A DNA stretch of 44,406 bases, taken from a virus. Its lineage: Duplodnaviria; Heunggongvirae; Uroviricota; Caudoviricetes. Below, one piece after another: positions 11,566 to 30,359 of this stretch. The stretch is taken from IMG/VR virus record IMGVR_UViG_3300042564_000253. One strand, 5' to 3'. Within the stretch, counting starts at the first letter, position 1, and each line of letters opens with the position of its first letter. The notes beneath the pieces are model-generated. The model did no database searches. It saw only the letters and a program-made list of their open reading frames with translations, and was not told the DNA's origin. A program made the position numbers and the translations under genes.

Positions 11566-11772
11566 TTACTTCTTTAGACCATACTTGATCCACTTGTACC
11601 ATATACGCTCATGGATAAAGTATTGGATGGGCTTATAGATAAGCTCAGCTACACCAAAGGCAGCTCCCACCCTTATAGAACCAGATATCCACCACATCAA
11701 AAGGAACCCTATTAGGGTACTGATTATCCTATAGCTAATAGTCTTAGCTACATGTCTTTTAATTAGGGGCAT
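11566..11772 (-). CDS. DUF2061-like small membrane protein
   Basis: RHVAKTISYRIIST...AAFGVAELIYK..QYFIHERIW; likely start ATG 11772. Confidence 0.75.
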   Translation of the reverse strand: MPLIKRHVAKTISYRIISTLIGFLLMWWISGSIRVGAAFGVAELIYKPIQYFIHERIWYKWIKYGLKK

Positions 11773-11781
11773 GCTTAGGGG

Positions 11782-11813
11782 CAAAACTAAGTAAAAAAGT
11801 TGAAACTACCAAA
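11782..11813 (-). promoter_or_regulatory. full Bacteroidota -33/-7 promoter
   Basis: TTTG (11813-11810), 20-nt spacer, TAGTTTTG (11789-11782). Confidence 0.6.
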
Positions 11814-11819
11814 TCTTTT

Positions 11820-12197
11820 TTAGTAGGGCTGATAGGACTTCTCCTCTACAAATTCAGAGCCATATTTGATATTAATATCTTTCTTAATACGTGCTCTTTG
11901 ATCATTCAATTTGTATACATTTCTAGCAAAAGCTACAAACTCTTTACCAAAGTCTTTAGCTCTCTCTAGGTCCCTGAGATCATCCTCCACCTTCCATAAC
12001 TCCTTGTTGATTTCAAACAAGTTTTTGGTAAGAGGGTAGTCAGTCATCAATGGATCTTCTGTTTTAAGAACCTCTATAAGGTATATTAATTCTTTCTTAA
12101 CATTCTCTAACTTAGTAGGGTCCTGTATCTTAGATGCTTTGATCATAAGTATAGTGTACTTGTCTACAATTTCTCCTAATGAAACTTCAATTTTCAT
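11820..12197 (-). CDS. DUF6165-like protein
   Basis: IEVSLGEIVDKYTIL.IK, N.ELW.VED.LR, ARNVYKLNDQRARIKK.IN..YGS..VEEKSY. Confidence 0.8.
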   Translation of the reverse strand: MKIEVSLGEIVDKYTILMIKASKIQDPTKLENVKKELIYLIEVLKTEDPLMTDYPLTKNLFEINKELWKVEDDLRDLERAKDFGKEFVAFARNVYKLNDQRARIKKDINIKYGSEFVEEKSYQPY

Positions 12198-12220
12198 AGC
12201 AAAATGTTTTTTATTTTAAA

Positions 12221-12228
12221 CAAAAGTA
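12221..12228 (-). promoter_or_regulatory. -7 element TACTTTTG for the leftward gene
   Basis: TAnnTTTG 23 nt upstream of ATG 12197. Confidence 0.5.
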
Positions 12229-12229
12229 G

Positions 12230-12237: not shown

Positions 12238-12254
12238 TAGGAAATATCAAAGAC

Positions 12255-12692
12255 ATGATTATAGTTATTTTTGGGCAGCCTGGAGCTGGTAAAACTACAC
12301 TAGCTCAAAGACTCATATTAGAGAGATTTTATCACATAGATGGAGACAAGTTAAGAGACATTTTCAAGAACAAAGATTACAGTAAGGAGGGTAGGATTAA
12401 GAATCTAAATAGGGCTAGTGACATTGCTCACTACATAGCCTTTACAGAAGGTCGTGACGTAGTCTTATCACTAGTCTATCCTTATGAGGAAGCTAGAGAG
12501 TACTTACGTAAGTTAACTAAAGGAGTTAGATGGATCTATCTAATCTATGAAGATGATAGAAATAGAGATCAATTTAAAGTGGAAGACTTTGAACTTCCAC
12601 ATATGGACAATGTAGATTTAATCATCAATACTTCCAACACTTCAATAGAAGAAAGTATAAACAAAATCAAAAATGTATGCAGAATATTCTAG
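12255..12692 (+). CDS. cysC: adenylyl-sulfate (APS) kinase-like protein
   Basis: GQPGAGKTT P-loop, IDGDKLR, DYSKEGRIKNLNRA, SLVYPYEEAR; start moved to ATG 12255. Confidence 0.8.
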   Translation: MIIVIFGQPGAGKTTLAQRLILERFYHIDGDKLRDIFKNKDYSKEGRIKNLNRASDIAHYIAFTEGRDVVLSLVYPYEEAREYLRKLTKGVRWIYLIYEDDRNRDQFKVEDFELPHMDNVDLIINTSNTSIEESINKIKNVCRIF

Positions 12693-13069
12693 CAAAGGGT
12701 AATGGTAAAGGAAATGGTTGGGCTATGTTTATAGGTAGATGGCAACCATGGCATGAAGGACATAGATGGTTAATTGATCAACAGTTAAACCAGGGAAAGA
12801 AGGTGTGTATAGCTATTAGAGATATGGAAACTGATGAAAAGAATCCATACTCAGCAATTCAAGTGATGATGAATATCACCAATGAATTAATAGGTCTTGT
12901 AGAAGAGGGTATGATAAGAATCATGATTGTTCCTGATATAGAAAGTATTAATTTTGGACGTGGTGTTGGCTATGATATCATTGAACATATTCCTCCTGCA
13001 GAAATACATGACATCTCAGCAACAAAAATTAGAGAACAAATGAATAAGAATGAAGAAGATATTTTATAA
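12677..13069 (+). CDS. HxGH nucleotidyltransferase (cytidylyltransferase-like; possible minimal sulfate adenylyltransferase)
   Basis: FIGRWQPWHEGH and ISATKIR motifs; overlaps both the cysC-like and sulfotransferase genes. Confidence 0.75.
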   Translation: MQNILAKGNGKGNGWAMFIGRWQPWHEGHRWLIDQQLNQGKKVCIAIRDMETDEKNPYSAIQVMMNITNELIGLVEEGMIRIMIVPDIESINFGRGVGYDIIEHIPPAEIHDISATKIREQMNKNEEDIL

Positions 13070-13868
13070 CGCATCACTGCCTAGATCTGGGTCTACATTA
13101 TTGCAAAATGTGCTAGCACAAAACCCAGACATATATGCCACTCCTACTAGTGGTCTATCTACATTACTGCAATCAGCAAAAGAAACATACAGTAAGCGAG
13201 CTGAGTTTGCTGCATTAGATACAGCTCTTATGAAGAAAGCCTTCTTAGGATTTTTAAGAGGAGGTATGGAAGGGTTTACTAACAATCTTTCAGACAAGAA
13301 GTATATCTTAGATAAAAGTTTTAACTGGGGAGGTGATTACTATCTATTGAAATATATGTTCAATGGAGAGTCACCAAAGATCATCATGATGGTAAGAGAC
13401 TTAAGAGAAAGTGTAGCATCTATGGAATCACAGTATAGATTCTCTCCACAACATGTCTATCCTAAAATTGATTTAGAAACTACACAACTTACTACATTAG
13501 AGAAGAGACTTAAGTATTGGGCTGTAAGTAATCCATTTGGATTAACACTAGACTTTATCAAAGAGATATTTACAGCTAAGATAGAGAATGAGATATTCTT
13601 TATTAAGTTTGAGGAATTCTGTGCATTCCCTGAACCAGTGATGAAAGGACTGTATAACTATTTAGAGATACCATACTTTGCTCATGACTTTGATAACATT
13701 GAACAGGTGACTGATCAGAACGATGGGTTCTATATATTCAATCATAAGATAAGAAAACAACTAAGACCTGTTGAACCTAAGGCTTTAGATATACTTGGAC
13801 CAGAAGCATGTAAATGGGTGTATACAAATTACGAATGGTTCTTTAAAAAGTTTAATTATGCCTTATAG
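13050..13868 (+). CDS. PAPS-dependent sulfotransferase
   Basis: 5'-PSB loop SLPRSGSTLL; 3'-PB motif MVRDLRESVAS; IKFEEF. Confidence 0.9.
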   Translation: MKKIFYNASLPRSGSTLLQNVLAQNPDIYATPTSGLSTLLQSAKETYSKRAEFAALDTALMKKAFLGFLRGGMEGFTNNLSDKKYILDKSFNWGGDYYLLKYMFNGESPKIIMMVRDLRESVASMESQYRFSPQHVYPKIDLETTQLTTLEKRLKYWAVSNPFGLTLDFIKEIFTAKIENEIFFIKFEEFCAFPEPVMKGLYNYLEIPYFAHDFDNIEQVTDQNDGFYIFNHKIRKQLRPVEPKALDILGPEACKWVYTNYEWFFKKFNYAL

Positions 13869-14355
13869 CTCAACAGCATTCAAAGAAGAAGTAAAGCGTC
13901 ACATATTAGCTAACCTACCTCTTCATACTAAAATATTAGATGTAGGTCCTGGTGCAGGTACATATGGATCAATGTTACGTGACTACTATAATATAGATGG
14001 ATTAGAAATCCATGAGCCTTATATAGATAAGTTTAACCTTAGAAGTATATACAACAAAGTAATGGTGGGAAACATTCTAGCATTTGACGTCTCTCCATAT
14101 GATTATATTATATTAGGAGATGTACTAGAGCACATACCAAAGTATGAAGCTATCAATCTGGTAGCTAAGATTAACTCTGCAGATAAGAAGTGTTTAATAG
14201 CTGTACCTTATATGTATGAGCAAGGAGAGTATGATGGTAATGTACATGAGATACATCATCAACCAGACTTAACAAATGAAATATTCCTAGAGAGATATCC
14301 AAGCATGCACTTGTTATATAAAGATGCAGGATATGGATACTATATAAACTATTAA
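13858..14355 (+). CDS. class I SAM-dependent methyltransferase
   Basis: ILDVGPGAGTYG, DGLEI, YDYIILGDVLEH; start moved to ATG 13858. Confidence 0.85.
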   Translation: MPYSSTAFKEEVKRHILANLPLHTKILDVGPGAGTYGSMLRDYYNIDGLEIHEPYIDKFNLRSIYNKVMVGNILAFDVSPYDYIILGDVLEHIPKYEAINLVAKINSADKKCLIAVPYMYEQGEYDGNVHEIHHQPDLTNEIFLERYPSMHLLYKDAGYGYYINY

Positions 14356-14356
14356 T

Positions 14357-15007
14357 ATGAACAACATAGAAACTTTATATCCCCATGGTGGATACATATT
14401 TAAACTACACTTTGATTTTGATTGGAAAACATTATATCCAATATGCAAAGAGTTAGTTAACTCAGAACTTGCATACTCTCCACTAGTAAAGAATGGTAAG
14501 AGTTCACATATGAACAAGCTATCTCCTCATAAGATAGAAGAATTTAGGCCATATTATATGTGGTTGTCTTCTTTAATTAAAGAAATCTTTACAAAGAATT
14601 GTCAATACTCTGATGATGTAATGGAGTATTTTGTTGCTAACAGTTGGGTGAATGTGCAGGGATATGGTGGTCACACTACAGTGCACAATCATGCTAATGT
14701 TTTTATGGTAGCTGCTGCTTATCTAAACCTACCTAAAGATGGTGGGTTCTTTGAATGCGTAGATCCATTAGAGTATAACAAAAGTAATCAGTATCATGAT
14801 GATCCTAATTGGATGTGGAAAGAAGTGCCTGCAATAACTGGTGATGTGTTAGTGTTTCCTGGTTGGTTAAAACATAGAACACAAGTGAACAATGCTCACT
14901 CTAAATTACTTATTGATGACAATGGTGTAGGACGTGAGGAAAACTCATCTGAAGATAGATGGGTTTTGACTACAAACTTTACACAAGAATTTAAAGAAAT
15001 AGTATAA
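14357..15007 (+). CDS. 2OG-Fe(II) oxygenase, TIGR02466-like
   Basis: SWVN, HNH metal motif, AAYL, VFPGWLKH, RWVLTTN. Confidence 0.85.
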   Translation: MNNIETLYPHGGYIFKLHFDFDWKTLYPICKELVNSELAYSPLVKNGKSSHMNKLSPHKIEEFRPYYMWLSSLIKEIFTKNCQYSDDVMEYFVANSWVNVQGYGGHTTVHNHANVFMVAAAYLNLPKDGGFFECVDPLEYNKSNQYHDDPNWMWKEVPAITGDVLVFPGWLKHRTQVNNAHSKLLIDDNGVGREENSSEDRWVLTTNFTQEFKEIV

Positions 15008-15960
15008 TGAAACCAGTCTGTTTAAACTTAGAAGAATGTAATGGGTTAGGTGACCTTATATGTGCCACCCCCACCATCAAGAAACTACATGATGCATACC
15101 AAAGAAAGATCATTGTCATCTCTAAGATGCCTGAGCTATTCAAGATGAATCCTTATGTAGAGAAGAGCTATAAAGCTAGTTCAATGGATATGGATTATTT
15201 CAAAGCTAATTATATAATGCACAACTCTTTCTATCTAGTAGGTAAGAAAGATGAGCGTGGTATAGAGATGAAGCATAATATGATGGACATCAGACAGTTC
15301 CATGCTATACACCTAGGCTTTATGCTTGGACAAGATGAACTAGAATGTTATTACAAACCTACAGAAGAAGATGCTTGTACAGATGGATTTAGTGATAAAA
15401 GTACATCTGGTACCAAAAGATATATAGTGATACATCCTGTTAACAGCTGGCCTAATAGAACATGGTCACAAGAGAACTGGTTAAACTTATCTAAAGAATT
15501 GATTAAATGGGGATATAATGTAGTGGCTGTAGGAAAAGATAGCTCTGAGACAGGGTTCTTTAATGTACAGAAACCTGTACATGAGATGGACAATAACATT
15601 ACTAATCTAATGAATAAGACATCCATATCTCAAACGTGGTATCTGATTAATAATGCTGCAGCTGTTATCACCATGGACTCAGGTATTCTTCATCTAGCAG
15701 GTACAACAGAAACACCTATAATTGAATTAGGATCTCCTATCAACCCTGAGTTTCGTAGACCATATAGAAAGACTAGTAAGCATATATACGTAAGAGGAGG
15801 CTGTGGATTACACTGCAGTTCTAACATGAAGTATGCTCTTGAGTATTGGCCTACGATAGACTACGTACAACCATTGATTGGATGTCTAGAGAAGAAAGAA
15901 ACATTTGAATGTCATCCATCTGTAGAACAAGTAATTCATGCAATTAACAATAACATATGA
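15007..15960 (+). CDS. GT9-family (heptosyltransferase-like) glycosyltransferase with C-terminal Cys cluster
   Basis: GLGDLICATP, IVIHP...RTWSQENW, ITMDSGILHLAG; C..HC...C...EC. Confidence 0.85.
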   Translation: MKPVCLNLEECNGLGDLICATPTIKKLHDAYQRKIIVISKMPELFKMNPYVEKSYKASSMDMDYFKANYIMHNSFYLVGKKDERGIEMKHNMMDIRQFHAIHLGFMLGQDELECYYKPTEEDACTDGFSDKSTSGTKRYIVIHPVNSWPNRTWSQENWLNLSKELIKWGYNVVAVGKDSSETGFFNVQKPVHEMDNNITNLMNKTSISQTWYLINNAAAVITMDSGILHLAGTTETPIIELGSPINPEFRRPYRKTSKHIYVRGGCGLHCSSNMKYALEYWPTIDYVQPLIGCLEKKETFECHPSVEQVIHAINNNI

Positions 15961-18620
15961 AAAAACTATTAATCATCACTCCTCACCTATCAACAGGAGG
16001 AGCACCACAGGTAACTGTAAATAAAGTAGAATTGTTACGAGAACACTTTGAAATCAAGGTGGTAGAGTATGCATTCTTAGCATGGCAGTTTGTTGTACAA
16101 AGAAATAGAATCATTGACATGCTTACAGAAGGAGTTAACTTCCATTCATTAGGGGATAATAAGTACGATGAACTGTTGCAAATTCTGCAAGACTTCAAAC
16201 CAGATGTAATCTCTATGGAAGAATTCCCTGAGATGTTTATGAATGAAGAATGTGCTGACTATATATATGATGCAGAGAGGCCATGGAAGGTTGTAGAAAC
16301 TACACATGATAGTTCATTCAATCCTAAAAACAAATACTATCTACCTGATAAGTTTGTATTTGTTAGCTCATATAACTCGTTCCAATACATTACATTAAAT
16401 GTACCTACAGAGGTAATTGAATATCCTATTGATAAGAAGGTTAGAAATAAAGTAGAGAGACAGCAACAACTTGGCTTAGATCCTGAGTACAAACACTTTG
16501 TAACTGTAGGGTTGTTTACTCCTAGAAAGAACCAAGCATATGCATTCCAACTAGCAGAAAGACTTAAGAACCACAAGGTTAAGTTTCACTTCCTAGGTAA
16601 CCAAGCTGGTAACTTTGCTAACTATTGGCAACCATTGATGGCTAACAAACCAGACAACTGTGTTGTGTGGGGAGAGCGTAATGATGTAAGTGAATTCTTA
16701 GAAGCATGTGATGTGTTTTTGTTCCCATCTAAAGGAGACAGAGGTAATAAGGAGTTAAATCCTATTGCTATTAAGGAAGCCATGGAATATGATGACTTGA
16801 TCAAAGTGATGTACAATCTAGACGTATACTGTAACAAGTATAATGATGAGGAGAATATGGTTTATTTAACTGGAGATCTTGGTAGTGATGCTACCAATAT
16901 CATCAAAAAATTAAACCTAGATGTATTAGATGAAGAGTGTATCATCTTGGGCACCTATCCAAATATTAAGGACAGAGTGCAATGGACCAAGGATACCATA
17001 CTGTCTCTAAAGCCATTAGGTAGAAAGATTATACTAGTATCTCACTATCCTGTAGACCAGGACATACAACGTATGGTGGATTACTATATCTATGATAAAC
17101 ACAACCCCTTGACTCACCACAGTTACTACACTAGGTTTTATCATGATACACCAGAGTACTTTGCTGAGATCAATATCAATGGATTGAAGGATAGCAATCA
17201 GTCCCTTACAGTGCTAGTAAACATGTTCAATGCAGCTAAGGTTGCTAAAGAGCTTGGATTCAAGAGATTCTTCTATACTACGTATGATGTTATGTTAGAT
17301 CCTAGAGACATACCTGCAGTGAATGAAGCATTTAGAACAGATAAAAAGTTATATGCTGCTACACTACCTACACCACAGGGTAAAGGTATTCAGACCAATG
17401 GTATTATGTTTGACACAGACTTCTTCTTAAAAGAGTTTGATGATGTGCGTACAGCAGAAGAATGGAACGCTGTATGTAAGAAAAGAAAATGTGAGAACTA
17501 TCTAGAAGACTATTTGTCCAAGGTTATCTTTAGCTTCAATCCTAATGATATTCAAGTGGTTACAACTGACAAGGATACTATGTTGATACACAGTGGGTTA
17601 GGTGTAGCATCTAATAGTGAGTATTATTCTATCATCCCTGTTGTTGGAAAACCAAACACTTATGTGTTCTATTTCTTTACATATAACAGAGACTTTAGAA
17701 ACATTTATATATCTATTGAAGATTACATGTGGAAAAGAATCATACCAGCTAAGAACCATGAACTTCTTTATCAGTTTGAATTCAAAGGAGAACCTATTAA
17801 TGTAAGAATGGATTTCTATGATGGTGATATAACTTATAAGGTGGAAGAGTTTATAATAAACAAAGACACATTACCTCTATACAAAAATACAGGTAAGTTT
17901 CAATGGAAGAAGAAGGATAGACCTAAGATTAAATTAGTTCATATACAAACCACACTAAATGATGAAAGAGAAAGAGCAAGTAGAGACTCCCTTATCAGCG
18001 TTGTCAACCATGGATGGGAATATAAGTTACATCTTAACCAGCCCTATAAGTCATTACCACCATCATATAACTGTCTCAGACCCAGTTGTGTTTCAATGGA
18101 ACTCTTCAATGAGGAGCAAGTTCGACAGTATGGCACTGCACTTACCCCAGCACATTATGGATGCTATCAAGCATTCAAAGATGCCATCTTAAGTGAATTC
18201 AATAACTGTGACTACTTGATAGTGTGTGAAGGTGATTGTATTATTGAGACAGACATACACTTTTTCGTACAAAAAGTTGAGGAATGTGCACACTTATTGG
18301 GACCAAACAACATAGAGTTTATGTCCTTTGGAGATAAAGATACATTAGAACATGGATGGCCTCAGAGTCCTGTCATCAAAGATGTGAACGATGATATGTA
18401 TGTCACTAATCATCTTATAGGTTTACAATGTATCATGTTCCCTGCACATGTATCTCCATGGTTAAAAGAAACTTTAAGAATGCACAAATGGGATGCTGCT
18501 GATATGTATTTTAATAATATCTTTGCAGGAGACAAAATGGGTATAGTTAAGAAAAGACTTACCACACAGGCAGATGGATTTTCTTTAATAGACAACATGC
18601 AAAAAACATTTAGAAAATGA
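15957..18620 (+). CDS. three-domain glycosyltransferase (GT4, uncharacterised GT-A-like, GT25-like)
   Basis: HLSTGGA, GLFTPRKNQ, DVFLFPS..ELNPIAIKEA (GT4); middle IILVSHYP..YYIYD domain; C-terminal AHYGCYQAF..LIVCEGD. Confidence 0.8.
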   Translation: MKKLLIITPHLSTGGAPQVTVNKVELLREHFEIKVVEYAFLAWQFVVQRNRIIDMLTEGVNFHSLGDNKYDELLQILQDFKPDVISMEEFPEMFMNEECADYIYDAERPWKVVETTHDSSFNPKNKYYLPDKFVFVSSYNSFQYITLNVPTEVIEYPIDKKVRNKVERQQQLGLDPEYKHFVTVGLFTPRKNQAYAFQLAERLKNHKVKFHFLGNQAGNFANYWQPLMANKPDNCVVWGERNDVSEFLEACDVFLFPSKGDRGNKELNPIAIKEAMEYDDLIKVMYNLDVYCNKYNDEENMVYLTGDLGSDATNIIKKLNLDVLDEECIILGTYPNIKDRVQWTKDTILSLKPLGRKIILVSHYPVDQDIQRMVDYYIYDKHNPLTHHSYYTRFYHDTPEYFAEININGLKDSNQSLTVLVNMFNAAKVAKELGFKRFFYTTYDVMLDPRDIPAVNEAFRTDKKLYAATLPTPQGKGIQTNGIMFDTDFFLKEFDDVRTAEEWNAVCKKRKCENYLEDYLSKVIFSFNPNDIQVVTTDKDTMLIHSGLGVASNSEYYSIIPVVGKPNTYVFYFFTYNRDFRNIYISIEDYMWKRIIPAKNHELLYQFEFKGEPINVRMDFYDGDITYKVEEFIINKDTLPLYKNTGKFQWKKKDRPKIKLVHIQTTLNDERERASRDSLISVVNHGWEYKLHLNQPYKSLPPSYNCLRPSCVSMELFNEEQVRQYGTALTPAHYGCYQAFKDAILSEFNNCDYLIVCEGDCIIETDIHFFVQKVEECAHLLGPNNIEFMSFGDKDTLEHGWPQSPVIKDVNDDMYVTNHLIGLQCIMFPAHVSPWLKETLRMHKWDAADMYFNNIFAGDKMGIVKKRLTTQADGFSLIDNMQKTFRK

Positions 18621-21961: not shown

Positions 21962-21988
21962 AAAAGGGGCTAATTAAAGCCCCTTTTT
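21961..21988. terminator. bidirectional intrinsic terminator
   Basis: Perfect inverted repeat aaaaaggggct-aattaa-agccccttttt between convergent genes. Confidence 0.9.
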
Positions 21989-22618: not shown

Positions 22619-22626
22619 CGTACAAA

Positions 22627-23934
22627 TTAAATATAAAGTTTTTCTTTTTCTGCTAATTTAGCATCTAGCTCTTGAAGAGCTTTTATCATTACACCTAATG
22701 AAGAGTTAATATCAATTCTATCATGTTTACTTGTAGCTAGTTCTTCTGGAGTATCTTCAGCTATGAAACCTATTCTAGTTGTATCATCCTGTCCATCTAG
22801 TTCATATTTATATGTAACTATCTCTGTACTATCTATTAGATCCATAGCAGATGCTGTAAATGGTTCTATATTAGTCTTAACTTCTTCTGTAGATACAGTG
22901 AAGAAATAAGTAGATCCTATCGAAGCAAATGTATACCATCCAAATCCTTCTCCAAAGAATGTTGGAGTTGAAGGACTTATCATTCCTCTATGACCACCTT
23001 GGTAAAATCTATTTGCAGTATACCATTGACTTGTTGTAATACCTCCTTCAAAAACTGCATTATTACTAGCATTTAATGTTTGGTTATTACTATTTGCAGG
23101 ACCTTGAGGTCCTTGGGGTCCTTGAGGTCCTTGGGGTCCTTGTGCTCCTGGTGCTCCTGTTGGTCCTTGTGGACCAGTAGGTCCTTGTACTCCTGTTGGT
23201 CCTTGTCCTCCTGGAGCACCTGTTCCACCATTGACTCCAGATACACCTGATGTACCTGATGATCCTGTAAATCCTTGTAAGCCTTGTGGACCTGTAGGAC
23301 CTGTAGCTCCAGTGGGACCAGTTCCACCATTCACTGCAGATGTACCAGATGATCCATTAGTACCTGATGATCCTGACGTTCCTGAGGAACCAGACGATCC
23401 ACTTCCACCTGATACACCTGTTGTAGCAGAAGAACCATTAGTTCCACTGCTTCCTGATGTACCACTCACTGCAGCTGTTCCTGAAGACCCACTCGTTCCT
23501 GATGTTCCAGTTGTACTAGACAAAGCAGATAGTCCTGCTGTTCCAGATGACCCTGCTACTCCTGTTGAACCAGAATCTGCACTTGTACCAGAGGTTGCAC
23601 TGGTTCCAGATGTAGCAGATGTACCACCACTTCCTGATGTACCTGATGATGCAGATGTACCTGAGGTAGCACTAGTTCCAGCAGTAGCTGAGATACTAGA
23701 TGTACCTGATGTAGCAGCTGTTCCATTGTATCCAGTTAAAGATACAGTCCAGCTATTATATGTTCCAGAACCTTTATAGTCATATGGAGTGATTACTAAT
23801 ACACCAGTACCAGTATCATAAGATACAACTCTACCAATTATATAATTATTAGTATCATGACTTGCTTGGACGAAGTCATTGACAACAAAGGCAAGCCCTG
23901 TACTAACATTAAATGTCATATTAGAGTATGGCAT
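22627..23934 (-). CDS. collagen-like tail fibre with S74 intramolecular chaperone
   Basis: N-terminal beta domain, (G-T/S-S)n then (GPT/GPQ)n, C-terminal STEEVKTNI...IGFIAED...IKALQEL. Confidence 0.9.
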   Translation of the reverse strand: MPYSNMTFNVSTGLAFVVNDFVQASHDTNNYIIGRVVSYDTGTGVLVITPYDYKGSGTYNSWTVSLTGYNGTAATSGTSSISATAGTSATSGTSASSGTSGSGGTSATSGTSATSGTSADSGSTGVAGSSGTAGLSALSSTTGTSGTSGSSGTAAVSGTSGSSGTNGSSATTGVSGGSGSSGSSGTSGSSGTNGSSGTSAVNGGTGPTGATGPTGPQGLQGFTGSSGTSGVSGVNGGTGAPGGQGPTGVQGPTGPQGPTGAPGAQGPQGPQGPQGPQGPANSNNQTLNASNNAVFEGGITTSQWYTANRFYQGGHRGMISPSTPTFFGEGFGWYTFASIGSTYFFTVSTEEVKTNIEPFTASAMDLIDSTEIVTYKYELDGQDDTTRIGFIAEDTPEELATSKHDRIDINSSLGVMIKALQELDAKLAEKEKLYI

Positions 23935-23936
23935 AA

Positions 23937-24305
23937 TTACTGATTGTTATTTTGTAACCAAGTTGGTTTAATTAAAACAACTTTTGGATTTACTTTATCC
24001 TCAAGTCTTTTATCTATCATGTTAGCTTTTATCCAAGCCATGTTTCTTTTCTTTCTATTCTCACTAATCTCAACCCACGATTGAAGTGCTTGAGGAGTCA
24101 ATTGCTCAAAGGGAATAAATTCACCAGGAGCAACATCAGATTTAATAGTAGTGGTAGCAGAGTATCTTTCTTCATGCAGTGTACCTGCAGTATCAACTGC
24201 TGTACCAACTAAAAACCAACTGATCTTTAATACAACTTGAGAATGACCCTCTAATGATGGTGCTACATGCAAATCATCAAGTATGAAATTATAATTAACT
24301 ACCAT
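23937..24305 (-). CDS. small fibre-associated protein (assembly/chaperone-like)
   Basis: VV..I.W...G...FIPFEQLT....SWV pattern often seen beside S74 fibres; sits between two fibre genes. Confidence 0.6.
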   Translation of the reverse strand: MVVNYNFILDDLHVAPSLEGHSQVVLKISWFLVGTAVDTAGTLHEERYSATTTIKSDVAPGEFIPFEQLTPQALQSWVEISENRKKRNMAWIKANMIDKRLEDKVNPKVVLIKPTWLQNNNQ

Positions 24306-24315
24306 ATTTTTTATT

Positions 24316-25608
24316 TTATAAATTATCTATTTTTTTATTCAGTTCTTGTAATGCTTTTAAAGCAACACCTATACTGTTAGTAATATCCATTCTATCATGA
24401 TTTGGACCAGCAAATTCTTCAGCTGTATCATCTGCAATGAATCCTAACTTTACATGATTGTATATTGGATTCTCAAGTTCATATTCAACTATATCTACAG
24501 TGTTTATTAAATCAATTGCACATGCTTGATAAGGTTTAATATCTGTCTTATATATTGATGAAGATGTACCAAAGTAGTTACTAGATCCCACCACACCAGC
24601 AGAAACCCAGTTACCATTACTGTACCAATACGCTCCTTGGTTAGCACTACATGCTGCCTGATTTTGAATTCTCCAACCACCACCTGAATATGCTTCATTT
24701 TGAGTAACTGTGTCACTAAATTGTACAGCATCTCCTTGGTTTAATGATTGGTTATAAATAGTTTGAGGACCTTGTCCACCAGCAGGTCCTTGAGCACCAG
24801 CAGGTCCTGTTGGACCCTGTGCACCTTGGGGACCTGTACCTCCTTGAGGACCAGTTCCACCTGCAGGGCCTTGACCTCCAGTGGGACCCTGAGGTCCTGT
24901 AGGTCCATTTGCACCACTTGCACCAGATGTTCCTCCAGCTCCTTGTGGACCTCTAGCACCCTGAGGTCCTGTTGGACCTGTAACACCTTGAGGACCTGTT
25001 GCTCCATTAGCACCAGAGACACCACTTGATCCACTTGTTGTACTTGCACCAGAAACACCACTTCCACCAGATGAACCTGATGTACCATTAGATCCTGAAG
25101 CACCACTACCACCAGAGGTTCCAGAGCTACCACTACTACCATTTGAACCAGAGGTTCCTGATGTTCTACTATTACCAGAACTACCATTAGCTCCAGCAAC
25201 ACCACTAGATGCAGATGTGCCACTTGTACCAGTTGTACCTGAGGTACCTGTACTACCAGCAGTTCCTGAATCACCAGCTGTTGCAGAACTTCCTGAATCA
25301 CCAGAACTTCCTGATGTACCAGACGAACCATCATTAGCAGATGTACCAGCTGTTCCTTCATTTCCTGAAGACCCACTAGAAGCAGATGTTCCAGAAGATC
25401 CAGGTAAACCAGTTAGATTAACTGTCCATGTACTATATGTACCACTACCTTTCCAAGCAAGAGGAGTTAATGTTATTGAACCTGTTACTTTATCATACGA
25501 TACAACATTGCCTATGACATAGTTATCAGCATCATAGCTAAGTTGTACATTATCACCTGCTTGATAAGCTAGTCCAGTATTTATAGTGAAGGTCATATTA
25601 GCTGGCAT
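24316..25608 (-). CDS. collagen-like tail fibre with S74 chaperone
   Basis: Same architecture; SSSIYKTDI...LGFIADD...LKALQEL. Confidence 0.9.
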
Positions 25609-26926
25609 TGTTCTTCTTATTTTGTAGGTTTACAATTCTTGCGTCAATCTCTTGTATAGCTTTTAAAACAAATGCTAAGGTACAACTTATTTCCATTTGA
25701 TTTTTTGTATCAGTGGATAATTCTTTGGGAGTATTTTCAGCAATAAATCCTATTCTCTTATCCTCATCACATTGTTCTATCTCTAAATTATAAGATACTA
25801 TATCAACTTGTTTTAATAAATCCACTGCAGAAGGAGCATATGATTGGATGTTAGTCTTAGTATCTCTAGTTGATGTAATATAAAAACTAGCAGCACCTAA
25901 TGATGCAGGGGTATACCAACCTGGACCAAAGCCTGTCCAACCTGCACCTTGGTTTGCACCTTGTACAAATTGACGATAGTTATTAAAATATGTTCTATAA
26001 TTTATTGTAGGAGCTGTTGCACCAGCAAAGTTTGTAAAAACCATTGTTGGGCCTGCATTAATATTCAAGTTTTGATTATAAGAAGCAGATGTACCTGTTG
26101 GGCCTTGAGCACCTGTTGGTCCTTGACCACCTGCACCACCTTGAGGACCTTGAGCTCCAAGAGGACCTGTTGCTCCCTGAGGACCTTGTCCACCTGCTGG
26201 ACCTTGTGGTCCTGTTGGACCTGTGGCACCTGATGATCCAGATGTTCCTTGTGGACCTCTAACACCTGTAATCCCACCTGGACCTGTTGCTCCCTGAGGA
26301 CCTGTTGGTCCTTGTGGACCTGTTGCTCCATTTGTTCCAGAAGAACCTGAAACTCTACCAGCACCAGCAGCACCACTAGACCCTGAAGTTCCTGATGAAC
26401 CACTTGTGCCTGATCCACCTGATGTACCTGTGGATGCAGAACTACCACTAGATCCAGATGTACCTGTGGTTCCTGATGAACCATCTGTTCCAGAACTACC
26501 TATTACACCAGAGGTACCAGAGCTAGCTGAGGTACCTGCACTTCCACTAGAATTACTTTCTGCAGAGGTTCCACTTGTAGCAGAACTTCCTGAACTGCCA
26601 TCTGTTCCAGATGAACCAGTGGTTCCACTAGACCCACTAGAAGCACTAGTTCCACTAGATGCACTTGTGCCTGCTGTACCTGTTGTTCCAGAGGAACCAG
26701 ACGTACTAGAACTGCCATTATATCCTGTAAGAGTTGCTGTCCAGCTACTAAATGTACCTGATCCAACAGACTCATAAGGAGTAACAACTAAATCACCAGT
26801 GGAAGGATTGTAAGATACAACCCTACCAGTGATGTAGTTATTCCCATCATGAGCCACTTTGACAAAGTCATTAGTATTGAACTCTTTGTTCAGGGAAATA
26901 TTAAAAGTTAAATTACTGTAAGGCAT
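25598..26926 (-). CDS. collagen-like tail fibre with S74 chaperone
   Basis: Same architecture; STRDTKTNI...IGFIAEN...LKAIQEI. Confidence 0.9.
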
Positions 26927-26935
26927 ATTTATTTA

Positions 26936-28603
26936 TTAAGCAGGAGGTAATGTTTCTGTTGTTCCACTTGTTCCTGAGTATATTGTTGTTTCACCTGATG
27001 TTGCTGCAGTTCCAGAGGAAGCACTTGTACCTGCTGAGGCACTTGTACCACTTGTTCCTGTTGTTCCACTAGATCCTGATGATGCACTTGTTCCTGAAGA
27101 AGCACTTGTTCCAGAGCTTCCATCAGTTCCTGATGTACCACTAGATCCAGATGTACCACTAGTTCCAGAAGAACCATTTGTACCTGATGTAGCATCTTGT
27201 CCACTTGTACCAGCAGATGCTGATGTACCAGCAGTACCAGATGATCCACTTAATCCTACAAAGTTAAAATAGAATTCTGTTAAGTTAGCAGGATCACTAC
27301 CACTTGCTGCAATTTGTACAACATCAAAGTTTTCAAATCCACTTACCAATGGTGTAGTGGCTGTAATCTTTAAGAATTTATAATTAGATTTATCAGTAAC
27401 GTTGGTAAGTCTAATGATAGATCCTGTTTGTAATGAGTCTAAATATGTAGATAGGTTAATATTTGGATCGTATGCAGTGTTATTAATTGCAATTGATGTA
27501 GTGCTACCTCCCCAAGATGCAGAGTCTAATGTAAAATTAGTTGATCCAGGGTTGATTGTTGTATCTTGTGTTGTATCATTGAATCTCCATATAGCTAAGT
27601 TACCATCAATACCAGCCAATCCACTTGTACCACTAGATGCAGAAGTTCCACTAGAACCATTAGTTCCACTTGTGCCACTAGTTCCACTAGTACCAGAAGA
27701 TGCACTCGTACCACTAGATCCACCAGTACCTGATGTTCCACTAGATCCATCAGTACCTGCAGTGGCAGATGATCCACTAGAGCCTGAAGTACCTGAGGTA
27801 CCATCACCTCCTGCAGCACCTCCTAAGTTAACTTCCCATACAGTATATGTACCACTACCTGAGGTAGCTGTGACATTAACAGACATTGCACCTGTAGCAG
27901 GATTGTAAGAAAGAAGATTACCACCCATAGCATTACTTGGATCATAAGCAATAACTATAGCTTGTCCTACAGTGTACGCAAGTCCTATAGAAACAGTAAA
28001 ATTCTGTGTACCTGTACCTATTGTTAATGAAGTAGCAGAAGTTGTTTTATACAAGTCTCCAGAGTTACCTGAAGTACCAGCTGTTCCTGCTGTGCCTGAA
28101 CTTCCATCAGTGCCTGCTGTTCCAGAGGTTCCAGAAGAACCATCTGTACCAGACGTTCCACTTGAAGCAGAGGTACCACTAGAGCCATCAGTACCAGTGG
28201 TACCTGACGTGCCACTAGAGCCATCTGTTCCTGTTGTACCACTTGATCCACTTGATCCACTGGTACCATTTGTACCTGAGGTTCCAGTTGTACCAGAAGA
28301 TCCATTAGAACCATCTGTTCCTGAGCTACCATCAGTACCACTAGAACCATTGGTTCCACTAGAACCATCAGTACCAGACGTACCACTTGATCCTGGAATA
28401 CCTGAACCAATTACAGTCCAAGTGTTATATGTACCACTACCAACATAGTTGGTTGGTTCAAATGTTAAACTTCCTGTAATTGAATCATATATAACCACTT
28501 GACCATATAAGAAATTATTCTCATCATTAATCACTTGGATGTACTGACCAAGAACAAAGTTCAAATTAGGTTGTACTGTTATTGTAATATTAGCGTAAGG
28601 CAT
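26936..28603 (-). CDS. fibre protein: beta domains separated by three (G-T/S-S/D)n tracts
   Basis: Two copies of the shared beta domain, one larger beta-rich domain, no S74. Confidence 0.85.
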   Translation of the reverse strand: MPYANITITVQPNLNFVLGQYIQVINDENNFLYGQVVIYDSITGSLTFEPTNYVGSGTYNTWTVIGSGIPGSSGTSGTDGSSGTNGSSGTDGSSGTDGSNGSSGTTGTSGTNGTSGSSGSSGTTGTDGSSGTSGTTGTDGSSGTSASSGTSGTDGSSGTSGTAGTDGSSGTAGTAGTSGNSGDLYKTTSATSLTIGTGTQNFTVSIGLAYTVGQAIVIAYDPSNAMGGNLLSYNPATGAMSVNVTATSGSGTYTVWEVNLGGAAGGDGTSGTSGSSGSSATAGTDGSSGTSGTGGSSGTSASSGTSGTSGTSGTNGSSGTSASSGTSGLAGIDGNLAIWRFNDTTQDTTINPGSTNFTLDSASWGGSTTSIAINNTAYDPNINLSTYLDSLQTGSIIRLTNVTDKSNYKFLKITATTPLVSGFENFDVVQIAASGSDPANLTEFYFNFVGLSGSSGTAGTSASAGTSGQDATSGTNGSSGTSGTSGSSGTSGTDGSSGTSASSGTSASSGSSGTTGTSGTSASAGTSASSGTAATSGETTIYSGTSGTTETLPPA

Positions 28604-28625
28604 TTATATTTATTTTATACGTTTA

Positions 28626-30359
28626 TTAAGGGAGAGTAGTGGTTGTAGTTGTTGTAGCTTCAGCAGGAGGAATAGTGATTGCACTACCACTTGTACCTAA
28701 TGTACTTGTTGATGTACCAGAAGTTCCTGTTGTACCTGTTGTACCAGCAGTGCCTGCTGTTCCACTAGATCCATCAGTTCCAGTTGTGCCACTTGTTCCA
28801 CTAGAGCCATCAGTGCCTGAAGTTCCTGCAGTACCTGAACTACCACTAGTTCCACTTGTACCACTGGTTCCACTTGTACCAGTTGTTCCTGAAGATCCAT
28901 CAGTACCACTTGAGCCATCTGTTCCACTAGACCCATCTGTACCAGAAGATCCAGAAGATCCACTTGATGCTGATGTACCTGAAGAACCAGATGTACCTGC
29001 AGTACCTGTAGTTCCAGTAGTACCTGATGTTCCTGTAGTACCAGATGAACCATCTGTACCACTTGATCCATCAGTTCCAGATGAACCATCAGTTCCTGTA
29101 GTTCCACTTGAACCACTTGACGCACTTGTACCAGATGAAGCAGACGTACCTGAACTCGCAGATGTACCAGAGCTACCAGAGCTTCCTGAAGTTCCAGAGC
29201 TTCCAGAACTACCTGATGTGCCTGAGCTTCCAGATGTGCCACTTGAACCATCAGTACCAGTTGTTCCACTCGTACCTGTAGTACCAGAAGATCCATCAGA
29301 TCCAGAAGTACCAGCAGTTGCAGAAGAACCTGAGGTTCCTGCTGTTCCACTAGTTCCTGTTGAGCCTGACGTACCACTTGTACCTGTAGTTCCACTTGAT
29401 CCATCAGTGCCACTTGTGCCTGCAGTTCCAGAAGAACCTGACGTTCCTGAACTAGCACTAGTTCCAGAAGAACCAGAAGTTCCTGAAGAACCATCACCAC
29501 CTGTTGCACCTTGTAAGTTTACAGACCATGCACCATATGTACCACCTCCCACTGTTAATGTAGGAGCAGTGAATTGTAATAAACCACTAACTGGTGAGTA
29601 ACTTATAACTACACTCTCTTGATAGTTACTTGAGTCATAAGCAATAAGAATTGATTGACCAGGAGTGTATGCTAAACCTATACCTACAACTATTGTTGCA
29701 CCAGTGCCTAATGTAAATGCTGTATTTGAGTTTGTTGCATATCTATCACCTGTTAATCCAGAAGAGCCAGATGTACCAGCACTTCCACTAGATCCAGAAG
29801 AAGCAGATGAACCTGACGTACCTGCAGAACCAGAGGTACCTGCAGAACCTGATGTACCACTTGAACCAGAGGAGCCTGAGCTACCACTAGTACCTGCACT
29901 ACCTGATGTACCAGAAAATCCTGAGCTACCTGATGTACCTGTTGTACCATTTGTACCAGAAGTACCAGTGGTACCATTTGTACCTGATCTACCACTAGAC
30001 CCACTAGACCCTGATGAGCCTGAAGATCCTGATGTTCCAGCAGTTCCATTTCTACCTGAACTACCAGACGTTGCTGAACTTCCACTAGAACCAGAAGATC
30101 CTGAAGATGCTGATGTACCATTGGTGCCTGACTGACCACTAGATCCTGAAACTCCATTAGTTCCATTTCTTCCAGAAGAGCCACTAGTACCAGACGTACC
30201 ATAGCCTGCTGATGCAAAGGCTGCATCAATTAACTGTAATGCAGTTTGTAAATTATCATTTGTGTTAATATGGGTGTATACAAGATAGGGGCCTTCGTAG
30301 AATACGCAGGTCGAATCCAGTATTACTGGGCAAGGGATTGCTTGGCAGGTAACGTTCAT
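28626..30359 (-). CDS. fibre protein: Cys-containing N-terminal domain, two very long (G-T/S-X)n tracts, poly-Thr C-terminus
   Basis: CQAIPCPVILDSTCVFYEG N-terminus; internal shared beta domain; ends PPAEATTTTTTTLP. Confidence 0.85.
   Translation of the reverse strand: MNVTCQAIPCPVILDSTCVFYEGPYLVYTHINTNDNLQTALQLIDAAFASAGYGTSGTSGSSGRNGTNGVSGSSGQSGTNGTSASSGSSGSSGSSATSGSSGRNGTAGTSGSSGSSGSSGSSGRSGTNGTTGTSGTNGTTGTSGSSGFSGTSGSAGTSGSSGSSGSSGTSGSAGTSGSAGTSGSSASSGSSGSAGTSGSSGLTGDRYATNSNTAFTLGTGATIVVGIGLAYTPGQSILIAYDSSNYQESVVISYSPVSGLLQFTAPTLTVGGGTYGAWSVNLQGATGGDGSSGTSGSSGTSASSGTSGSSGTAGTSGTDGSSGTTGTSGTSGSTGTSGTAGTSGSSATAGTSGSDGSSGTTGTSGTTGTDGSSGTSGSSGTSGSSGSSGTSGSSGSSGTSASSGTSASSGTSASSGSSGTTGTDGSSGTDGSSGTDGSSGTTGTSGTTGTTGTAGTSGSSGTSASSGSSGSSGTDGSSGTDGSSGTDGSSGTTGTSGTSGTSGTSGSSGTAGTSGTDGSSGTSGTTGTDGSSGTAGTAGTTGTTGTSGTSTSTLGTSGSAITIPPAEATTTTTTTLP
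28680..29510 (-). repeat. longest Gly-X-Y ([12 protein letters not shown]) coding tract, codon-degenerate 9-bp period
   Basis: Visible periodic accac/ttcctga/gtacc units; boundaries approximate. Confidence 0.9.

Follow-up and report, generated by a model that had tools for sequence, protein, structure and literature searches.

A phage operon encoding a TibC/Aah-family glycosyltransferase as a candidate system for O-glycosylation of collagen-like fibres

What does a phage modify with an operon of sugar-transferring enzymes that converges on its collagen-like fibre genes? The window (the whole 44,406-nt stretch of DNA that was analysed) derives from a crAss-like phage from lake water. Its operon, already described in the first-pass annotation of this DNA, comprises 11 plus-strand ORFs spanning 12204/12255 to 21961 with neighbours overlapping by 1-20 nt. 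The operon genes, with families assigned by Pfam and NCBIfam, and the adjoining features are:

11820..12197, minus strand: DUF6165 protein, 125 aa, divergent from the operon (PF19662 1.2e-10)
12255-21961, plus strand: operon of 11 overlap-coupled genes
12255..12692, plus strand: APS-kinase-like P-loop kinase (PF01583 5.8e-11)
12677..13069, plus strand: HxGH nucleotidyltransferase, 130 aa (NF002243 7.6e-9, PF01467 5e-4)
13050..13868, plus strand: PAPS-type sulfotransferase (PF13469 2.1e-12, PF00685 1.3e-8)
13858..14355, plus strand: class-I SAM methyltransferase (PF13489 3.3e-5, weak and under the gathering score; LDVGPGAG motif)
14357..15007, plus strand: 2OG-Fe(II) oxygenase of the TIGR02466/PF13759 type (PF13759 2.2e-12, TIGR02466 2.1e-11)
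15007..15960, plus strand: GT9 glycosyltransferase (PF01075 2.6e-23; PDB 1psw 5e-10)
15957..18620, plus strand: predicted triple glycosyltransferase, 887 aa (PF00534 at aa 168-278)
18617..19630, plus strand: GT4 (GT-B) glycosyltransferase (PF00534 1.1e-6)
19627..20223, plus strand: DUF6445 protein (PF20043 6e-13; HSD motif)
20220..21317, plus strand: TibC/Aah-family (BAHT) protein O-glycosyltransferase, 365 aa (TIGR04414 240.4 bits)
21314..21961, plus strand: 2OG-Fe(II) oxygenase, last gene of the operon (PF13759 1.8e-19, phrog_81 1.3e-32)
21961-21988, no strand: bidirectional intrinsic-terminator-like hairpin (11-bp stem with 5 GC pairs, A-run and T-run flanks)

The operon encodes six glycosyltransferase domains, carried by the GT9, 887-aa, GT4 and TibC/Aah-family proteins, which bears out the earlier count of three or more types. 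The remaining products are a PAPS-type sulfotransferase, an APS-kinase-like kinase, the small nucleotidyltransferase, a methyltransferase and two clear and one probable 2OG oxygenase. No 19-residue Kyte-Doolittle window exceeds 1.3 in any of these enzymes, so they show no transmembrane helix or signal-peptide-like core, as had also been noted before.

The protein encoded at 20220-21317 is, judged by its sequence, a bona fide member of the TibC/Aah family. It exceeds the 200-bit equivalog cut-off of TIGR04414, the NCBIfam model for TibC/Aah O-heptosyltransferases, and it matches TibC (4rap) at 1.5e-46 with alignment of the LGD motif (encoded at 20526-20534) and of the four-Cys cluster CxxC...WC...EC (21168-21263). 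The earlier identification of a protein O-heptosyltransferase homologue is thereby upheld, with heptose as a possible sugar. To our knowledge every family member characterised so far is a cytoplasmic enzyme that glycosylates Ser in proteins, and protein serines are the only acceptors known. The GT9 at 15007..15960, in contrast, is by its scores (TIGR02195 56 bits vs TIGR04414 34 bits) a generic enzyme closest to LPS heptosyltransferase II and not a member of the TibC subfamily.

The 887-aa protein is assigned from sequence and modelling as an N-terminal GT-B domain (GT4-like), a middle GT-A domain and a C-terminal GT-A domain (GT25-like). An atlas search with the C-terminal domain returned PF01755 in 92 of 100 matches (score 0.96). 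The AF2 model of aa 320-887 (pLDDT 79.8) contains two GT-A domains by VIA (Z 13.7-15.1), and its best Foldseek matches are COLGALT1, LH3 and Mimivirus R699 (about 2e-10).

The strong hairpin at 21961-21988 separates the operon from a convergent unit, and the earlier description of this unit as a prolyl-hydroxylase-like gene and five fibre genes holds:

21997..22590, minus strand: prolyl-4-hydroxylase-like 2OG oxygenase (PF13640 5.6e-13, phrog_61 1e-30)
22627..23934, minus strand: fibre 1 (Collagen 1.9e-17, Peptidase_S74 1.5e-7; tail-fibre PHROGs)
23937..24305, minus strand: DUF7936 small protein between fibre genes (PF25590 9e-8)
24316..25608, minus strand: fibre 2, architecture as fibre 1 (Collagen 5.6e-21, S74 1.5e-3)
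25598..26926, minus strand: fibre 3, architecture as fibre 1 (Collagen 2.2e-19, S74 4.8e-5)
26936..28603, minus strand: fibre 4 (Collagen 9.2e-28)
28626..30359, minus strand: fibre 5 (Collagen 1.9e-53)

All five fibres match Pfam Collagen (1.9e-17 to 1.9e-53) and three of the five end in a Peptidase_S74 chaperone. Fibre 1 consists of an N-terminal domain, a Ser/Thr tract, a GPQ/GPT collagen tract and the C-terminal S74 chaperone. The repeats had been described as almost all Gly, Ser and Thr, which applies fully to fibres 4 and 5 and only to the N-terminal half of fibres 1-3, because in the latter a classical GPQ/GPT tract, which has Pro at X, comes after the Ser/Thr tracts. The triplets of fibres 4 and 5 are nearly only G-T/S-S/T/D/N/A. 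Fibre 4 has 65 triplets in runs of at least six with a single Pro (X position: T 40, S 20; Y position: S 40, D 10, N 5), and its runs are interrupted by globular inserts, which fibre 5 also contains. Fibre 5 has 126 Pro-free Ser/Thr triplets in such runs, is 48% Ser plus Thr and lacks Lys. A scan for the G-T-S pattern gave 14 matches in the window vs 0 in 100 shuffles. The fibres match tail-fibre PHROGs and lie in a structural and cargo block that adjoins a homologue of the crAss-type virion RNAP; the DUF7936 protein is kept beside fibres in related loci. Very large uncharacterised proteins of 1653 aa and 2969 aa are encoded downstream in the window.

Since a TibC-like enzyme lies beside such fibres and tracks fibres of this kind across public viral contigs, the most likely reading is that the phage coats its own fibres with sugar. 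This reading is drawn from homology and gene neighbourhood and has strong comparative support. In the forward direction, 22 TibC loci from IMG/VR, each complete for 10 kb on both sides, were searched for collagen ORFs that are Pro-poor and Ser/Thr-rich (at least 0.65), and 19/22 have one within 10 kb of TibC. The outcome that the first-pass annotation had named as speaking against fibre modification, an operon common in phages lacking Ser/Thr-rich structural proteins, was thus not seen. Such an ORF likewise flanks the TibC homologue of Microcystis phage Mel-JY01 and that of the megaphage LR756501. In L012, L071, L073 and LR756504 the examined flanks of the TibC homologue contain no Ser/Thr-rich collagen ORF; the collagen ORFs of L012 fall under the Ser/Thr cut-off.

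The co-occurrence check proposed in the first-pass annotation was strongly positive in the reverse direction as well. Among 74 IMG/VR records chosen solely by a G-T-[ST]-G-[ST]-[ST] DNA pattern, 23 encode a TibC homologue, vs 1 of 92 Pro-type controls (0/47 Pro-type collagen records and 1/45 from an AT-wobble Pro-type pattern; p=1.4e-8), and for records of at least 60 kb the counts are 19/24 vs 0/19 (p=5e-8), the p values being subject to the sampled records not being phylogenetically independent. About 20% of the large Ser/Thr-collagen records lack a TibC homologue. Of 20 sampled records with a TibC homologue that were inspected, covering many phage types, GC contents of 0.26-0.55 and sizes of 20 to 548 kb, 15 have a Ser/Thr-rich collagen ORF no more than 10 kb from that homologue and often abutting it. 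In 12/20 the TibC domain is encoded in a single ORF with a homologue of the GT4 or of the 887-aa GT-B domain, including GT4-TibC fusions of 698-721 aa in 5/20; by the Rosetta-stone argument these fusions tie TibC to the GT-B enzymes of the operon. Homologues of the 887-aa protein occur in nearly all TibC loci.

An alternative is that the operon serves host takeover as an auxiliary cassette which, during infection, remodels the host envelope (LPS core or O-chain, capsule or surface glycoproteins), for example to block superinfection, with its adjacency to fibres reflecting only the hypervariable tail-fibre region. The making of LPS and capsule typically employs enzymes of the GT9, GT4, GT25-like and GT2 families, PHROGs class related oxygenases and a glycosyltransferase as 'moron/AMG', and glycosyltransferase clusters in the tail-fibre hypervariable regions of pelagimyophages were read as modifying the host O-chain (PMC7029224). 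It may also be that the cassette just travels as one block through such regions. However, both collagen types mark tail-fibre regions and the TibC-like gene follows the Ser/Thr type and not the Pro type, while the fusions and the abutment to collagen ORFs recur in unrelated genome backgrounds. Pfam families and hydropathy reveal no flippase, polymerase, Gtr-type component or membrane-anchored enzyme in the operon. We know of no TibC-family enzyme that acts on lipid-linked or envelope glycans, and envelope remodelling is considered rather unlikely.

The TibC-like enzyme might instead modify another protein, with the collagen tracts as mere neighbours; candidate acceptors would be the capsid, the 1653-aa or 2969-aa proteins, poly-Thr stubs, the globular fibre inserts or a host protein. 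Known BAHT acceptors are folded beta-helical strand-loop-strand motifs of autotransporters, whereas the acceptors proposed here are collagen triplets. Both the inserts of fibres 4 and 5 and the very large downstream proteins would offer other targets, and mycobacteriophage glycans are located on the C-termini of capsid and tail-tube proteins (Freeman 2023, as cited in PMC12619734). Against this, the Ser/Thr collagen ORF is the sole feature found to recur beside TibC across very different phages, and homologues of the 1653-aa protein are missing from most distant TibC loci. A different acceptor is thus judged improbable.

Fibre modification also has precedents. SgtA, whose gene adjoins bclA3, O-glycosylates Thr in collagen GPT repeats (PMC7157674), and Mimivirus L230 modifies viral collagen-like proteins (PMC9614988). 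Virion glycosylation and collagen glycosylation are both known already; for the pairing of the TibC/Aah family with collagen-like proteins, a literature search found no earlier paper.

It is therefore considered reasonably probable that the operon is a phage-encoded cytoplasmic O-glycosylation cassette acting on the phage's own Ser/Thr-rich collagen-like fibres, an interpretation partly supported as a whole, in which TibC identity, co-occurrence and fusions stand. Family membership, predicted enzyme solubility, gene order, genome-wide co-occurrence with and adjacency to Ser/Thr collagen ORFs, and fusions are observed, and the following course is proposed around them. Late in infection, the soluble TibC/Aah-family enzyme would add a first sugar to Ser (perhaps Thr) of the G-T-S/G-S-S tracts, before or during fibre trimerisation. 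If the family donor is kept, host ADP-heptose would provide heptose as this sugar; gmhA and rfaE-II are absent from five near-complete relatives and the host is only presumed to be a member of the Bacteroidota, so the supply of heptose is uncertain and another donor may be used. The GT-B and GT-A domains of the 887-aa protein, the GT4 and the WaaF-like GT9 could then lengthen the sugar into an oligosaccharide, the GT9 possibly supplying a second heptose. Lastly, accessory genes that vary between phages (sulfotransferase, kinase and nucleotidyltransferase, methyltransferase, PF13759 and DUF6445 oxygenases) may decorate the glycan or the fibre, and the P4H-like enzyme may act on the GPQ/GPT tracts. 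The product might then be placed on the virion as the 'virion glycocalyx' envisaged earlier, possibly sulfated or methylated, where it might serve the shielding, stability or mimicry suggested there.

The link of these sulfotransferase, methyltransferase and oxygenase genes to the fibres is weaker, because they are present in only some related loci and missing from many TibC loci. What had been called a PAPS module retains its sulfotransferase, with a 5'-PSB loop PRSGST at aa 11, and its kinase, which falls below NCBIfam equivalog cut-offs (NF004041 54 bits vs 127 bits). The ORF of the kinase opens at 12204 and its likely start is the Met right before the GQPGAGK P-loop. The 130-aa nucleotidyltransferase is at most a putative ATP sulfurylase: it is closest to archaeal NMN adenylyltransferase (7.6e-9). 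It may act in sulfate activation, and several loci have it together with the kinase and the sulfotransferase. The claimed methyltransferase keeps its motif and a weak family match, and has homologues in many TibC loci. For the three oxygenases claimed, two are clear PF13759 members and DUF6445 is probably the third, with PF13640 atlas look-alikes as a lead (score 0.91). In the P4H-like protein the HQD motif is found at aa 116 and the distal His at aa 174.

DNA hypermodification by phage glycosyltransferases and 2OG (TET/JBP) oxygenases, with glycosylated hydroxymethyl bases that evade restriction, is known and is the default reading of phage glycosyltransferases in several papers. Here it is very improbable: the oxygenases belong to PF13759, PF13640 and DUF6445 with no TET/JBP, hydroxymethylase or base-modifying family detected, the key enzyme falls in a protein-Ser glycosyltransferase family, and the operon, which is placed in the structural block rather than among the replication genes, varies together with a fibre type.

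The divergent DUF6165 gene is conserved alongside the TibC-like gene, with tblastn matches in most TibC loci, distant ones included. Its product is a predicted four-helix bundle (AF2 model, pLDDT 88.6), and AFDB contains fusions of homologous domains to FkbM methyltransferase and GT9 proteins. Outside 11566-30359 the window holds further glycan genes, a GT2 at 824-1594 and a methyltransferase at 1564-2100.

It is on balance probable that the phage encodes a protein O-glycosyltransferase cassette dedicated to its Ser/Thr collagen-like fibres, a reading drawn from sequence that rests on family membership, gene adjacency, domain fusion and controlled co-occurrence. The first-pass annotation had gone further and envisaged a possibly sulfated and methylated glycan on the phage's own fibres; its interpretation is supported in part, as far as the probable dedicated cassette goes, and a 'glycocalyx' with sulfate and methyl groups is speculation, as is any function of it. 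The cassette comprises 11 plus-strand ORFs that run from 12204 or 12255 to 21961, with overlaps of 1-20 nt between most neighbours. A strong hairpin with flanking A and T runs (21961-21988) closes the operon where it meets the oppositely oriented unit on the minus strand, and the observation of 11 overlap-coupled genes converging on the fibres is confirmed. A scan for sigma-70-type promoters is uninformative, with fewer matches than in shuffled sequence (42 vs 53.5). No operon enzyme exceeds 1.3 in a Kyte-Doolittle 19-mer scan, and all are thus predicted to be soluble, in line with the earlier claim that they have neither signal peptide nor transmembrane segment.

Genes of the modification operon and of the converging fibre unit
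Operon gene 1, plus strand: APS-kinase-like P-loop kinase, below the NCBIfam equivalog cut-offs
12677-13069, plus strand: 130-aa HxGH nucleotidyltransferase with a GRWQPWHEGH motif, nearest to archaeal NMN adenylyltransferases
Operon gene 3, plus strand: sulfotransferase, PF13469 at 48 bits (cut-off 27), with a PRSGST PAPS (PSB) loop
Operon gene 4, plus strand: class-I methyltransferase, weak match
Operon gene 5, plus strand: 2OG oxygenase, PF13759
15007-15960, plus strand: GT9, PF01075 at 83 bits (cut-off 22), nearest to LPS heptosyltransferase II
Operon gene 7, plus strand: 887-aa protein, GT-B plus two predicted GT-A domains
Operon gene 8, plus strand: GT4, between the 887-aa and DUF6445 genes
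Operon gene 9, plus strand: DUF6445 protein with an HSD motif and, as a lead, PF13640 look-alikes in the atlas
20220-21317, plus strand: TibC-like 365-aa enzyme, TIGR04414, operon gene 10
Operon gene 11 (last), plus strand: second PF13759 2OG oxygenase
21997-22590, minus strand: P4H-like 2OG oxygenase, PF13640 at 50.1 bits (cut-off 27), HxD...H iron triad with HQD (aa 116) and His (aa 174)
22627-23934, minus strand: fibre 1
24316-25608, minus strand: fibre 2
25598-26926, minus strand: fibre 3
26936-28603, minus strand: fibre 4
28626-30359, minus strand: fibre 5

The TibC-like enzyme had been called a protein O-heptosyltransferase homologue and proves to be a true member of the TibC/Aah-type O-heptosyltransferase (BAHT) family. 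It scores 240.4 bits against TIGR04414 ('autotransporter strand-loop-strand O-heptosyltransferase'), for which the curated equivalog cut-off is 200, over profile positions 24-372 of 374, and matches the sequence of the TibC crystal structure (PDB 4rap) at 1.5e-46. Its LGD at aa 103-105 is aligned with the LGD of TibC, which we take to be the site of the catalytic Asp, and CNGC...WC...EC at aa 317-348 is aligned with the CYGC...WC...EC of TibC, a four-Cys cluster near the C-terminus that presumably binds iron. Homologues are abundant in metagenomes (>1000). BAHT enzymes use ADP-heptose as donor, assemble into dodecamers and modify a neighbouring autotransporter in its beta-helical passenger. 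A search of the window for an autotransporter that could serve as acceptor found none, which places the enzyme within the BAHT family but outside the TibC-TibA type of system. In addition, gmhA (GmhA) and rfaE-II (the RfaE adenylyltransferase domain) are absent from five near-complete relatives of 100-117 kb, and the donor would therefore be supplied by the host or be some other sugar.

All five fibres match PF01391 (Collagen) at 63-178 bits, well over the gathering cut-off of 27.2, and all match tail-fibre PHROGs, with a C-terminal Peptidase_S74 chaperone in three of them. Fibres 4 and 5 are built nearly exclusively of G-T/S-S/T/D/N/A triplets, with 65 and 126 triplets respectively in runs of at least six and a single Pro; Ser and Thr make up 48% of fibre 5, which contains no Lys. 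Fibres 1-3 begin with a Ser/Thr tract that is followed by GPQ/GPT collagen, where Pro occupies the X position 12-14 times. It is the Pro of these G-P-Q and G-P-T triplets that the P4H-like oxygenase would take as its substrate. The Ser/Thr tracts themselves are nearly devoid of Pro and include occasional Gly-to-Ala positions (G-T-S-A-S-S), which makes them imperfect collagens. In the fibres within 22627-26926 on the minus strand, regular G-T-S-A-S-S hexads disrupt the strict Gly-X-Y register. Many contig joints of the DNA run X3 fall within the fibre repeats, pointing to repeat-length variants or to assembly collapse.

The association between enzyme and fibre holds across IMG/VR in both directions. 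Scanning the database with the TibC-like protein yielded 75 loci at 35-88% identity, nearly all of which encode homologues of the 887-aa protein and many of which encode GT4, GT9 and DUF6165; the kinase, sulfotransferase, methyltransferase and oxygenases are found in only some. A Pro-poor collagen-like ORF rich in Ser/Thr (at least 0.65) is present in 19 of the 22 loci that include both 10-kb flanks, and the opposite case, an operon common in phages that lack Ser/Thr-rich structural proteins, was not found. In GenBank, the 735-kb megaphage LR756501 carries pieces of the 887-aa protein, GT4 and TibC immediately adjoining a Ser/Thr collagen ORF, and LR756504 is an exception to the pairing. Microcystis phage Mel-JY01 has its TibC domain at the C-terminal end of an annotated 'FkbM methyltransferase' of 1226 aa, the CDS of which lies downstream, by 1.7 kb, from a G-T-S ORF of 1016 aa that is not annotated. 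This open frame (PP395634.1, our locus L077, 2-3049, plus strand) contains 202 triplets of the G-T-S type and overlaps annotated CDSs at 1-651 (minus), 739-2298 (minus) and 2519-3052 (plus), of which at least the two on the minus strand are probably shadow ORFs of the repeat. The frame is open at the start of the record, so the true gene may wrap around.

A reverse search with fibre 1 alone recovered 10 close relatives of the same lineage, with TibC in all but one cut contig; as only one lineage was reached, this search is of no use as a control, and records were sampled by DNA pattern instead. Whole IMG/VR records with DNA encoding G-T-[ST]-G-[ST]-[ST] twice were searched for TibC homologues, which occur in 23 of 74 such records and in six of the seven that are at least 90% complete. 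Records sampled with a Pro-type (G-P-x)4 pattern contain none (0/47). A second Pro-type control, restricted to A/T wobble bases to remove the confound of GC content and habitat, gives 1/45, and the Ser/Thr pattern is found in none of its records. Overall, the 23/74 compares with 1/92 (p=1.4e-8), and for records of at least 60 kb 19/24 compares with 0/19 (p=5e-8), in both cases for records that are not phylogenetically independent. Inspection of 20 kb around 20 of the pattern-sampled TibC homologues, in genomes of 20 to 548 kb and GC 0.26-0.55, showed that 15 of the regions have a collagen ORF rich in Ser/Thr and free of Pro no more than 10 kb away, in several cases only a few dozen bases. Twelve of the 20 encode the TibC domain in one ORF with a homologue either of the GT4 or of the 887-aa protein's GT-B domain, and these fusions tie the glycosyltransferases of the operon into one pathway. 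Such TibC domains lie in ORFs of 683-1527 aa in the fetched loci L325-L343 (from sampled records G002-G071), the largest of which have extra unidentified N-terminal regions; one case of 1379 aa lies in a stretch of 55% GC. The TibC and Ser/Thr collagen cassette may travel as a unit.

The 887-aa protein begins with a GT-B domain of the GT4 type, and Pfam and PDB sequence searches with its middle and C-terminal parts returned nothing. Folding of aa 320-887 from an alignment of 21 sequences (pLDDT 79.8) predicts two GT-A domains, and the top Foldseek hits of this model, all near 2e-10, are the human collagen galactosyltransferase COLGALT1 (2.2e-10, TM about 0.25), the lysyl hydroxylase LH3 and R699 of Mimivirus. 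In the atlas, 92 of 100 look-alikes of the C-terminal domain carry PF01755 (GT25), for which Pfam itself gives no match. VIA-align scores COLGALT1 at Z 14.2 across both domains and GnT-I at Z 15.1, with POMGNT1 and glycogenin on par. The notion that the protein is a 'collagen galactosyltransferase' was therefore rejected, since these Z scores tie COLGALT1 with generic GT-A enzymes and since Lys acceptors are nearly absent from the Ser/Thr tracts (fibre 5 has no Lys, and fibre 4 has four over its full length). On the predicted model, the protein is a triple glycosyltransferase in which the two GT-A domains are arranged in tandem much as in COLGALT1. Counted by domain, the operon encodes six glycosyltransferase modules, which is consistent with a multi-step glycan. 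The GT9 falls far under all WaaC, WaaF and WaaQ equivalog cut-offs (best TIGR02195, 56 vs 134.6), and by its profile matches it is a generic member whose best signals are to LPS heptosyltransferase II models. The DUF6445 protein matched nothing in Pfam and PDB sequence searches; judging from its HSD motif and atlas look-alikes it is probably a third 2OG oxygenase.

Of the 'PAPS module with sulfotransferase' suggested at first pass, the sulfotransferase is upheld by PF13469 and the PSB loop, the kinase is only APS-kinase-like, and no recognised ATP sulfurylase was found among the operon genes with NCBIfam and Pfam profiles, the 130-aa nucleotidyltransferase being NMNAT-like. At the fetched loci L003, L007, L008, L022 and L059-L061 the latter has the sulfotransferase and the APS-kinase-like kinase as companions, and it is a candidate for a minimal enzyme of sulfate activation. 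Its assignment as a heptose-1-phosphate adenylyltransferase was rejected, as it gives no TIGR02199 signal and travels with the kinase and sulfotransferase.

DUF6165 (11820-12197, minus strand) is predicted to form a four-helix bundle and recurs together with the TibC-like gene in phages that include distant ones. In AFDB, homologues of the domain occur in fusion with FkbM methyltransferases and with GT9 proteins, and DUF6165 could serve the glycosylation machinery as an adaptor or accessory domain. PDB matches of its model were discarded, none being significant and all of them noise for a four-helix bundle. Outside the region covered by the first-pass annotation lie a GT2 (824-1594, plus strand) and a second SAM methyltransferase (phrog_32762; 1564-2100, plus strand), and the glycan toolkit of the phage hence exceeds the operon.

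The TibC/TibA and Aah/AIDA-I pairs share with this system the curated family, the LGD and four-Cys patterns, an enzyme that is predicted here to be soluble and cytoplasmic, and a gene position beside a long, repetitive Ser-rich surface protein that is a putative multi-site acceptor. Here, however, the enzyme is phage-encoded without an autotransporter, and a collagen-like fibre of G-T/S-S/T triplets takes the place of the beta-helix as candidate acceptor. BAHT structures are available in the PDB (4rap, 4rb4), and the known acceptors are beta-helical loops, not collagen triplets. Further differences are that the phage relatives examined lack heptose-synthesis genes and that in phages the TibC domain is often fused to GT-B and embedded in a multi-glycosyltransferase operon, for which reason an oligosaccharide is expected rather than a single heptose.

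The nearest functional analogues would be SgtA/BclA3 and BclA, in which a glycosyltransferase gene likewise adjoins the gene of a collagen-like filament. SgtA of Clostridioides difficile, encoded next to bclA3, is a soluble enzyme that O-glycosylates Thr of collagen repeats, with Ser also accepted, prior to assembly, and the first sugar is then extended to an oligosaccharide (PMC7157674). BclA of Bacillus anthracis is described as an O-glycosylated collagen-like exosporium filament (cited in PMC9614988). SgtA differs in being a GT-A/TPR O-GlcNAc transferase that acts on GPT repeats of a spore protein, whereas a BAHT enzyme, Pro-free G-T-S/G-S-S repeats and a virion are concerned here. Mimivirus too combines collagen-like proteins with its own 2OG-oxygenase and glycosyltransferase enzymes (L230 and R699), and L230 is a lysyl hydroxylase and glucosyltransferase that acts on viral collagen-like proteins (PMC9614988); giant viruses also have fibrils that are glycosylated. 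The predicted tandem GT-A of the 887-aa protein adds to this likeness through its top Foldseek matches, with VIA Z scores that are generic; the Mimivirus enzymes, however, act on hydroxylysine and belong to a virus of eukaryotes, and the phage Ser/Thr tracts are essentially free of Lys.

Among phages, mycobacteriophages use their own glycosyltransferases to modify structural proteins in the cytoplasm, the acceptors being the C-termini of capsid and tail-tube subunits, according to the citing paper (Freeman et al. 2023, in PMC12619734). This is the only experimentally shown glycosylation of phage-particle proteins found cited, and it differs in its glycosyltransferase families and in having no collagen-like fibres, BAHT enzyme or sulfotransferase. 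Glycosyltransferase clusters beside the tail fibres of aquatic phages have usually been dismissed as modifiers of the host surface or of DNA. In pelagimyophages and cyanomyophages, several glycosyltransferases lie beside tail-fibre and collagen-repeat genes in a hypervariable region, an arrangement like the present one; those clusters were read as modifiers of the host O-chain, with no BAHT link reported (PMC7029224). The association statistics argue for the fibre as substrate, at least for the TibC-containing cassette. Literature searches on a link of BAHT enzymes to collagen-like proteins or to phages, and on glycosyltransferases and collagen of crAss-like phages, retrieved no earlier description, within a coverage that leaves out most subscription journals.

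A protein-Ser glycosyltransferase family thus appears to be tied specifically to Ser/Thr-type collagen-like fibres in many phage lineages. If true, the BAHT family extends beyond autotransporters, functional proline-free 'collagen' tracts are explained, and a virus-made glycan layer underlies the host recognition, stability and antigenicity of many lake and environmental phages, including crAss-like phages and megaphages. Experimental work is feasible with Mel-JY01, a cultured carrier. Decidedly more doubtful is the broad proposal of a widespread mobile cassette of Ser/Thr collagen fibre, BAHT and GT-B, found in aquatic phages from 66 kb to 548-kb megaphages, that would define a second, hitherto unrecognised TibC/Aah substrate class. 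Its Pro-free tracts would be densely O-glycosylated, and here also sulfated and methylated, and the glycans would replace Pro and hydroxyproline in stabilising extended or triple-helical fibres, with glycan-coated host recognition as the outcome for many environmental phages.

The window is phage DNA of about 34% GC. Whole-region megablast against GenBank phages gave no nucleotide match; among public records the nearest is in IMG/VR, a contig of 60 kb that is 95% identical across the operon, and near-identical DNA is contained in lake-water metagenomes of at least 16 studies. Contigs of two lake metatranscriptome runs from one study span short pieces of operon and fibres, some with 0 mismatches; they were not counted as evidence of expression, as they carry neither strand nor level and DNA carry-over is possible. 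On the minus strand, 35490-44399 encodes 2969 aa with similarity (4e-27) to the 'putative RNA polymerase' of crAss-like phages, Bacteroides phage crAss001 among them, and the fibre genes accordingly follow a crAss-type RNA-polymerase homologue and a 1653-aa ORF on the same strand. The window also encodes a sixth collagen-repeat fibre (7566-8423, minus strand; PF01391 2e-13), which is shorter than the five in the cluster and is situated away from them, upstream of the endolysin block. A 338-aa protein (6373-7389, minus strand) has no Pfam match and belongs to phrog_4417; its homologues adjoin the major-tail-protein genes of Enterococcus, Lactococcus and Lactobacillus phages.
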